Below, piece after piece: positions 17,086 through 56,719 of a stretch of DNA of 64,000 nt. The stretch is taken from NCBI RefSeq assembly GCF_013315695.1, contig NZ_CP054353.1. One strand, written 5' to 3'. Numbering within the stretch: position 1 is the stretch's first letter; every line of letters begins with the position of its first letter. This DNA comes from Escherichia coli. GTDB taxonomy: Bacteria > Pseudomonadota > Gammaproteobacteria > Enterobacterales > Enterobacteriaceae. The notes under the pieces are model-generated. The model saw only the letters and a program-made list of their open reading frames with translations. It did not search any database and had not been told where the DNA came from. The position numbers were made by a program, and so were the translations under genes.

Positions 17086-17263
17086 TTTCTTCTCATCACA
17101 TAAAAAAACGGCGCTAGTTTACGCCCTGTGAGTCCGTAAGCAAACCAGGTTAACGATTGCGTGAAAATTAACCATTGCATTGTCAACGTAAAGCAGTATC
17201 ATGCGGCGGCTCGAAAAAAGGGTCAGCACGTTATTATGTTAAGGTAACAGACGTGTCGTACGT

Positions 17264-17299
17264 ATTGGGTTCCCTCACCCCAATGGTTAATCAAAAAGG
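17264..17299 (+). promoter_or_regulatory. Candidate preQ1-I-like riboswitch/leader element in yhhQ 5' UTR
   Basis: Hairpin ATTGGG-UUCCCUCA-CCCAAT followed by A-rich tail GGTTAATCAAAAAGG that includes the SD, ending 6 nt before the yhhQ ATG; architecture resembles the preQ1-I aptamer as I remember it. Confidence 0.35.
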
Positions 17300-17305
17300 T
17301 ACAAT

Positions 17306-17971
17306 ATGAACGTTTTCTCGCAAACGCAACGCTATAAGGCGTTGTTCTGGTTATCGTTATTTCATCTTCTGGTGATCACCTCCAGTAACTATCTGGTTCA
17401 GCTTCCCGTCTCCATTTTTGGTTTCCATACCACCTGGGGCGCGTTTAGCTTTCCGTTTATTTTCCTTGCTACCGACCTGACTGTGCGTATTTTTGGCGCA
17501 CCGCTGGCTCGTCGCATCATCTTTGCGGTAATGATCCCCGCATTGCTGATCTCCTACGTCATCTCATCGCTGTTTTATATGGGGTCATGGCAAGGATTCG
17601 GCGCGCTCGCCCACTTCAACCTGTTTGTCGCCCGTATCGCCACCGCCAGTTTCATGGCCTACGCGCTGGGGCAGATCCTCGACGTGCACGTTTTTAACCG
17701 CCTGCGTCAGAGTCGTCGCTGGTGGCTGGCACCGACGGCTTCCACCCTGTTTGGTAACGTCAGCGACACGCTGGCCTTCTTCTTCATTGCCTTCTGGCGC
17801 AGCCCGGATGCCTTTATGGCTGAACACTGGATGGAAATCGCGCTGGTCGATTACTGTTTCAAAGTGTTAATCAGTATCGTTTTCTTCCTGCCAATGTATG
17901 GCGTATTACTCAATATGCTGTTGAAAAGACTGGCAGATAAATCCGGAATCAACGCTTTGCAGGCGAGTTAA
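17306..17971 (+). CDS. yhhQ: Queuosine precursor (preQ0/preQ1) transporter YhhQ (COG1738)
   Basis: 221 aa polytopic membrane protein, MNVFSQTQRYKALFWLSLFHLLVITSSNYLVQ... Confidence 0.92.
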   Translation: MNVFSQTQRYKALFWLSLFHLLVITSSNYLVQLPVSIFGFHTTWGAFSFPFIFLATDLTVRIFGAPLARRIIFAVMIPALLISYVISSLFYMGSWQGFGALAHFNLFVARIATASFMAYALGQILDVHVFNRLRQSRRWWLAPTASTLFGNVSDTLAFFFIAFWRSPDAFMAEHWMEIALVDYCFKVLISIVFFLPMYGVLLNMLLKRLADKSGINALQAS

Positions 17972-18043: not shown

Positions 18044-18601
18044 ATGCGCAATCTGGTTAAATATGTCGGAATTGGCCTGCTGGTTATGGGGCTTGCGGCC
18101 TGTGATGATAAAGACACTAACGCTACGGCGCAGGGTTCGGTCGCGGAAAGTAACGCTACCGGGAATCCCGTCAACCTGCTTGATGGCAAGTTAAGTTTCT
18201 CGCTGCCAGCGGATATGACCGACCAGAGCGGTAAGCTGGGAACGCAGGCTAATAACATGCATGTCTGGTCCGACGCCACCGGGCAAAAAGCAGTCATCGT
18301 CATCATGGGCGATGATCCGAAAGAAGATCTGGCGGTGCTGGCGAAGCGCCTGGAAGATCAGCAACGTAGCCGCGATCCGCAGCTGCAAGTGGTAACCAAT
18401 AAAGCCATTGAGCTGAAAGGTCACAAAATGCAGCAGTTAGACAGCATTATCTCCGCGAAAGGCCAGACGGCGTACTCTTCCGTTATTCTGGGTAACGTGG
18501 GTAATCAACTGCTGACCATGCAAATTACGCTGCCCGCTGACGATCAGCAAAAAGCACAGACCACCGCAGAAAACATCATTAATACGCTGGTTATTCAGTA
18601 A
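18044..18601 (+). CDS. dcrB: Periplasmic lipoprotein DcrB
   Basis: ORF 17990..18601; start at [20 protein letters not shown] (lipobox), SD AAGGAAG upstream. Confidence 0.9.
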
Positions 18602-56620: not shown

Positions 56621-56719
56621 GCCGGATGCGGCGTGAACGCCTTATCCGGCCTACAAAATCATGCAAATTCAATATATTGCACAAACCACGTAGGCCTGAT
56701 AAGGCGTAGCGCATCAGGC
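56621..56719. repeat. REP/BIME element between convergent island genes
   Basis: gccggatgcggcgtgaacgccttatccggcctaca and gtaggcctgataaggcgtagcgcatcaggc REP units. Confidence 0.8.

Follow-up and report, generated by a model that had tools for sequence, protein, structure and literature searches.

The preQ1 riboswitch (class I, type III) in front of yhhQ in Escherichia coli: identity with the published RNA, near-invariance in Enterobacteriaceae and a gap in Rfam 15

The closest described system to the element analysed here is the type III subgroup of class I preQ1 riboswitches. According to PMC10622847 and the 2024 review PMC11625349, in which the original work is cited, this subgroup was defined in 2014 by McCown et al. 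from 293 sequences, almost all from Pseudomonadota and upstream of yhhQ, and the first evidence of binding came from in-line probing of a representative from Shigella dysenteriae. In the gamma-proteobacteria yhhQ is almost the exclusive target of the type III members, and the specificity cytosine is 97% conserved in the type III consensus (PMC10622847, PMC11625349). Transport of preQ0 and preQ1 by YhhQ has been reported (PMC5372724).

The E. coli member was characterised by Schroeder et al. (J Biol Chem 2023, PMC10622847), in whose Table S1 the 'WT Eco riboswitch 36-mer' has the sequence AUUGGGUUCCCUCACCCCAAUGGUUAAUCAAAAAGG. This RNA binds preQ1 with a KD of 57.9 nM and 1:1 stoichiometry by ITC; by SPR, the KD was 120 nM for preQ1 versus 16 µM for preQ0, a 133-fold difference, and the complex with preQ0 had a half-life of 4.5 s (PMC10622847). 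The cocrystal structure, at 2.30 Å (PDB 8fza), was obtained with a 30-mer variant whose linker had been shortened and redesigned; the shorter linker led to a higher affinity by ITC, and A-minor contacts were visible in the crystal. In this structure the four bases of the Shine-Dalgarno sequence (SD) are all buried, within the pocket, its ceiling and P2, the last being formed by the pairing of C10, C11 and U12 with G36, G35 and A34 of the SD, whilst the methylamine of preQ1 is hydrogen-bonded to O6 of G5 and to the phosphate of C12, in the crystal numbering (PMC10622847). In a GFPuv reporter in queC-deletion E. coli, preQ1 caused a dose-responsive 6.1-fold repression with an EC50 of 291 nM, which was lost in the mutants U7C, C15U, C16U and A33C. 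In particular, U7C, C15U and C16U abolished, or nearly so, both binding and regulation, the A33 mutants showed a ~39,000-fold loss of affinity and no residual regulation, and the G6DAP/C16U mutant lost 645-fold in affinity. The reporter construct had a heterologous promoter, a C-G in place of U-A at the second pair of P1 and an extended SD, AAGGAGG (PMC10622847).

Type II of class I, known from Thermoanaerobacter tengcongensis (Tte) and from the Bacillus subtilis queC leader, is like type III an H-type pseudoknot that binds one ligand; in both, an AC motif with the specificity cytosine precedes the 3' strand of P1, the pocket is nearly identical and an A-rich L3 runs in the minor groove of P1. 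By contrast, the loop of type III is shorter and all-pyrimidine, the turn of P2 is tighter, four SD bases are buried instead of two, and one of them, A33, touches the ligand. The discrimination against preQ0 is also different (133-fold for type III and 17-fold for Tte), as are the genes regulated, yhhQ for type III and queT or queCDEF for type II. Type I, represented by Carnobacterium antarcticum, shares with type III the same pseudoknot fold and the UU motif after the 5' strand of P1, but it accommodates two stacked preQ1 molecules and has a larger loop, whereas type III binds one. The preQ1-II and preQ1-III classes are larger pseudoknots of the HLout type, unlike the 36-nt H-type element described below.

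The stretch of DNA analysed here (the window) comprises 64,000 nucleotides of E. coli contig NZ_CP054353.1. A string search with AUUGGGUUCCCUCACCCCAAUGGUUAAUCAAAAAGG gave exactly one match in the window, at 17264-17299 on the plus strand, with 36/36 identical positions and zero mismatches. Given this exact match, the element is one and the same as the E. coli preQ1 riboswitch (class I, type III) of the literature and, therefore, is already known, at the level of the subgroup since 2014 and as the characterised E. coli member since 2023. For this exact sequence ligand binding, the residues of the pocket and preQ1-dependent repression of a reporter have been demonstrated (PMC10622847). Position n of the WT riboswitch corresponds to position 17263+n of the window, and the features of the locus are the following:

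17175-17180, 17197-17202 and 17203-17209, plus strand: putative yhhQ promoter, with -35 TTGCAT, 16-nt spacer, -10 TATCAT and GC-rich discriminator GCGGCGG, respectively (phylogenetic footprint)
17264-17299, plus strand: complete type III preQ1-I riboswitch, aptamer plus expression platform, a 36-nt H-type pseudoknot (36/36 match to the literature; 57.5-bit match of model R1, see below)
17264-17269, plus strand: 5' strand of P1, A1-G6 (sequence, pair counts)
17270-17278, plus strand: pyrimidine-rich loop UUCCCUCAC, 9 nt, U7-C15 (sequence, conservation, published pairings)
17270, plus strand: U7, ligand contact (published structure and mutants)
17273-17275, plus strand: C10, C11 and U12, anti-SD strand of P2 (published crystal structure)
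17278, plus strand: C15, specificity base, Watson-Crick pair with preQ1 (published structure and mutants)
17279-17284, plus strand: 3' strand of P1, C16-U21 (sequence, pair counts)
17285-17295, plus strand: L3, made of the variable linker GGUUAAUC (17285-17292) and the start of the poly-A, A30-A32 (17293-17295) (conservation, crystal)
17293-17297, plus strand: poly-A run AAAAA (invariant among orthologues)
17296-17299, plus strand: Shine-Dalgarno AAGG, whose A33 (17296) reads an edge of preQ1 (invariance, published mutants)
17297-17299, plus strand: A34, G35 and G36, pairing with U12, C11 and C10 to form P2 (published crystal structure)
17300-17308, plus strand: 6-nt spacer TACAAT and yhhQ start codon ATG (17306-17308) (sequence)
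17306-17971, plus strand: coding sequence of yhhQ, the regulated gene, whose 221-aa product is a transporter for preQ0/preQ1 salvage (list of open reading frames, RefSeq product name, PMC5372724)

An earlier note on this DNA, made from the letters alone, had described at this site a 6-bp hairpin followed by an A-rich tail that contains the SD and ends 6 nt before the ATG. The sequence confirmed this description: ATTGGG (17264-17269) and CCCAAT (17279-17284) form a 6-bp stem immediately 5' of yhhQ, the tail GGTTAATCAAAAAGG (17285-17299) terminates in AAGG, and TACAAT (17300-17305) separates it from the start codon. The loop, on the other hand, had been counted as 8 nt, and is of 9 nt (TTCCCTCAC, 17270-17278). 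The same note had proposed the compact preQ1-I architecture with a pseudoknot sequestering the SD, which the literature on the exact 36-mer has borne out (PMC10622847), and had regarded yhhQ as the gene of a queuosine-precursor transporter under a preQ1 riboswitch, in agreement with PMC5372724, with the type III literature and with the RefSeq product name of the ORF, 7-cyano-7-deazaguanine/7-aminomethyl-7-deazaguanine transporter. Thus, a genuine riboswitch of 36 nt could be recognised from the sequence without any tool. The gene neighbourhood around the site is the enterobacterial zntA - tusA - yhhQ - dcrB - yhhS.

Several distinctive traits of type III are found at this locus. P1 is short (ATTGGG/CCCAAT), with G6-C16 as the top pair making the floor of the pocket, and the loop at 17270-17278 is rich in pyrimidines, starts with UU and ends with AC. 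As in type III, four to five conserved adenines precede the 3' strand of P2 and are joined to P1 by a variable linker; the element lies just 5' of yhhQ (COG1738), with the SD within the aptamer and G36 located 6 nt before the ATG. The complementarity between 17273-17275 and 17297-17299 required for P2 is present, and its three pairs are invariant in the set of species described below. The aptamer is identical (36/36) to that of the type III system of McCown et al. 2014 and Schroeder et al. 2023 (PDB 8fza), with the same gene downstream.

We conclude, with a probability of roughly 0.96, that the type III preQ1 riboswitch of class I described from E. coli occupies 17264-17299, in the 5' leader of yhhQ and acting as a translational OFF switch that hides the SD. 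The 36-nt RNA folds as an H-type pseudoknot composed of P1, the loop carrying the anti-SD strand, the A-rich tail and the SD; the tail runs in the minor groove of P1, and AAGG closes the knot as P2. The ligand sits between P1 and P2, where C15 (by Watson-Crick pairing), U7 and A33 read it. Since A33 is both the first base of the SD and a reader of preQ1, the bound ligand would lock the whole SD in the pseudoknot, 6 nt from the ATG. With the SD locked, access of the 30S subunit would be blocked and translation of the preQ0/preQ1 transporter would not be initiated, a negative feedback by which ample preQ1 would result in less importer. The same switch would operate on the native chromosomal yhhQ mRNA, hiding AAGG from the 30S subunit.

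To evaluate conservation we gathered yhhQ loci from 80 species of Enterobacteriaceae by similarity of the YhhQ protein (88-99% amino-acid identity); as the loci were chosen through the protein, the choice was blind to the RNA. The core GGGTTCCCT(C/A)ACCCC was found upstream of the start codon in 80/80 species, and so was AAAAAGG, placed 6-7 nt before the ATG. In the resulting 81 sequences, eight of the nine loop positions are invariant, the exception being C13 (79 C and 2 A), and U7, U8, A14, C15 and the SD AAGG never change; over core and tail, 21/22 positions are invariant. The 49 distinct versions of the element differ in the lower pairs of P1, in the linker and in everything 5' of P1, where 55 different 15-mers were counted directly upstream of the stem among the 81 sequences. 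The distance between the end of the core (C18) and the poly-A stretch is 6-11 nt, with variable sequence, and reaches 47-73 nt in three loci. As a neutral yardstick we used yhhQ itself in the same 81 sequences: only 18 of its 200 third-codon positions (9%) and 2 of its 54 fourfold-degenerate sites (4%) are invariant, and invariant runs in the 600 nt of coding sequence reach at most 6 nt. The invariance of 21/22 non-coding positions, compared with such diverged neutral sites, indicates strong selection on the nucleotide sequence. Within E. coli, a 61-nt query spanning the element was present in 5425/5426 complete genomes, as a rule once per chromosome, and in 4873 of them at ≥99% identity.

The pairing of P1 was inspected in the same orthologues. 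Across 46 distinct orthologous sequences the pairs G4-C18, G5-C17 and G6-C16 never change, and the sole compensatory change of the stem is U3-A19 to A-U, carried by 4 Buttiauxella loci that amount to 2 distinct sequences. The pair 2-20 forms in 30/44 scored sequences (68%), or in 33/49 (67%) if the variants with a long linker are included, and the sixth pair of E. coli, A1-U21, is not conserved, pairing in 24% of the versions; the conserved P1 elsewhere has 4-5 bp versus the 6 bp of E. coli. When the pairs of the published pseudoknot were scored on the alignment, 96.2% of the cells contained standard pairs, versus 37-72% with the partners slid by 1-3 columns; the columns of P2 showed pairing in 100% of the cells and variation in none. 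The support from covariation is, thus, thin, consisting of one pair in two distinct sequences among the 46 distinct orthologues of Enterobacteriaceae. Since P2 is invariant and one pair is compensatory in a shallow set of species, the argument for selection rests on conservation against the neutral benchmark.

The earlier note had named beforehand a search with the preQ1 models of Rfam as a check, and counted the lack of a match towards a refutation. With Rfam 15, cmscan at E ≤ 10 gave no match whether 901 nt or only 66 nt surrounding the site were searched, no preQ1 family was detected at gathering score in the whole 64-kb window, and a permissive search found no preQ1 family in 20 orthologous loci of other genera; that is, RF00522 (PreQ1), RF01054 (preQ1-II) and RF02680 (preQ1-III) did not reach E ≤ 10 either here or in those orthologues. 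RF00522, cited as the family of class I, has no match at this site, and RF01054 and RF02680 share with it the intent of describing preQ1 riboswitches. To obtain a model specific for the subtype, we built R1 from 45 non-Escherichia orthologues, including P1 only because covariance models cannot represent pseudoknots, and searched with the filters off. Alignment A3, extending through the ATG, was used for the model, and A2, trimmed at GG, was set aside as MAFFT had left its tails out of register. R1 gave a single strong match in the 64-kb window, with 57.5 bits and E 3.7e-16, covering 17264-17308; its next-best match scored 16.5 bits on the tail from SD to ATG only. The latter, AAAGGTCACAAAATG at 18411-18430 on the plus strand, lies inside dcrB and resembles the enterobacterial consensus of the yhhQ SD-spacer-ATG; since no aptamer accompanies it and its ATG is the in-frame codon of an internal Met, the resemblance is probably a coincidence.

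Since binding, structure and reporter data exist and the subtype-specific model finds the site, the negative result with Rfam does not refute the riboswitch. Judged on this site and on the 20 orthologous loci, all of type III, it is a gap of coverage or sensitivity for a very small subtype and not counter-evidence. A validated element without any Rfam match also means that very small pseudoknotted aptamers should not be considered refuted by 'no Rfam hit'. The annotations are in line with this gap. The RefSeq record inspected has no feature between tusA and yhhQ and, among the matches listed, the other E. coli RefSeq records name only yhhQ under the match and no riboswitch. Hence the remark in the earlier note on the apparent lack of a riboswitch annotation for E. 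coli yhhQ holds for RefSeq records, but not for the literature, where the element was characterised in 2023. The value as a discovery is nil, because the riboswitch has been published with structure, binding and reporter data; on the other hand, a standard automated route misses a validated riboswitch present in 5425/5426 complete genomes of E. coli, and what remains of interest is this annotation gap and the regulation of the native chromosomal yhhQ, so far inferred.

Different explanations of the conserved block were considered. The aptamer could be real and yet respond in the cell mainly to preQ0 rather than to preQ1. For YhhQ, a preference for importing preQ0 over preQ1 has been reported, and earlier in-line probing is cited as suggesting a preQ0 preference of type III, both according to PMC10622847. 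However, the SPR values obtained with the exact RNA (120 nM for preQ1 and 16 µM for preQ0) and the 4.5 s half-life of the preQ0 complex argue for the opposite preference, and the contacts of the methylamine with O6 of G5 and the phosphate of C12 are impossible for a nitrile, which makes a mainly preQ0-driven switch very unlikely. It could also be proposed that the block is an operator for a protein or an sRNA, or a site for ribosome loading, and that binding of preQ1 in vitro is irrelevant in the native context. The conservation by itself reveals selection on the sequence and not the identity of the binding partner, the covariation in the species set is weak, and the published switching was measured in a reporter, native regulation being inferred from it. 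Nevertheless, mutations of the ligand contacts abolish binding and switching in vivo in parallel, the conserved positions coincide with the residues of the pocket and the pseudoknot, and the regulated gene transports the compound family of the ligand; an operator of this kind appears, consequently, highly improbable.

The possibility that a functionless hairpin lies by chance beside an ordinary SD would agree with the folding energies and with the lack of a match in Rfam. The minimum free energy of 17255-17320 is -8.5 kcal/mol with z = +0.51, and 132/200 shuffled sequences fold at least as well; by thermodynamics alone the hairpin is unremarkable, and a nested fold of minimum energy cannot represent a pseudoknot. 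The exact match with the published RNA, the near-invariance in 80 species and the unique match of R1 show that the element is more than chance. Thus, 21/22 positions invariant in 81 sequences, against 4-9% at neutral sites, the E of 3.7e-16 given by a model from which Escherichia was left out, and the published binding, structure and reporter data refute this explanation, whose probability is negligible. The SD-hiding preQ1 riboswitch is, therefore, the reading we retain.

Although the aptamer is the published one, the native leader and the reporter construct are not identical. The native leader has AAGG-TACAAT-ATG in place of AAGGAGG and U-A in place of C-G at the second pair of P1; its SD, of AAGG only, is weaker, and a putative extension of ~55 nt would precede the aptamer on its 5' side. 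Because the SD is only AAGG and ~55 nt appear to be inserted in Escherichia between promoter and aptamer, the regulation of native yhhQ may differ from that of the reporter, and the forms with an insert in L3, of the Klebsiella/Raoultella type, may represent an uncharacterised sub-variant of type III with altered switching. We regard this proposal as tentative and rather unlikely; if it is true, the identity of the element in the window does not change. The forms in question are those of Enterobacter sp. 10-1 (L076:496-600), Raoultella terrigena (L080:496-600) and a Klebsiella MAG (L078:60-138), in which the distance from the hairpin to the AAAAAGG containing the SD is 47-73 nt, compared to 6-11 nt. 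The insert folds as a hairpin of its own, closed by CCC(G)/CGGG (-27 kcal/mol, z from -1.1 to -1.8, in the two long ones), which would bring the poly-A and the SD back beside P1. Moreover, the inserts of L076 and L080 contain a second TCCCTCAC, which repeats the aptamer loop in part.

Upstream of the element, in an alignment of the species anchored at a conserved block, TTGCA(A/T) and (G/A)CAGTA(T/A)NAT are conserved in all 81 sequences, with a spacer constant in length and variable in sequence, and this footprint is the basis of the putative promoter listed above. A scan for consensus promoters called none at the yhhQ leader; the promoter was missed because its -35 matches the consensus in 3/6 positions only. 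Judging from the position of these motifs, transcription would start roughly 55 nt upstream of the aptamer, so that the aptamer would be within the transcript. Between the -10 block and the aptamer there are 61 nt in E. coli (17203-17263), up to 161 nt elsewhere and, in most genera, 11-13 nt; with 11-13 nt, transcription would begin immediately before P1. In the species with a long leader a second conserved block, similar to AATAGCGTGTNGCACG, is found just 5' of P1, with ACAGACGTGTCGTACG as the E. coli version, and it may be either an inserted element or a second promoter. An ORF of 44 aa (17175-17309), which overlaps the leader, was considered as a leader peptide and dismissed, because the upstream sequence and its length vary freely among genera and no conserved frame is possible.

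Further upstream, AGGTTAACGATTGCGT at 17147-17162, between the divergent genes tusA and yhhQ, hardly varies among the 80 species. With 12/16 matches to the consensus ACGCAAACGTTTGCGT, it resembles a PurR operator. YhhQ has been reported as a member of the PurR regulon (PMC5372724). On the minus strand, at 17100-17125, a terminator-like hairpin GGCGTAAACTAGCGCC followed by GTTTTTTTAT is located ~15 nt upstream of the start codon of tusA; such a position is odd for a terminator, and the hairpin may be a leader element of tusA or a product of chance. Finally, the sole match of Rfam at gathering score in the 64-kb window was the sRNA RF02751 ES036 (CssrF), at 56655-56697 on the plus strand, with 42.9 bits versus a threshold of 37.6 and E 2.4e-05.
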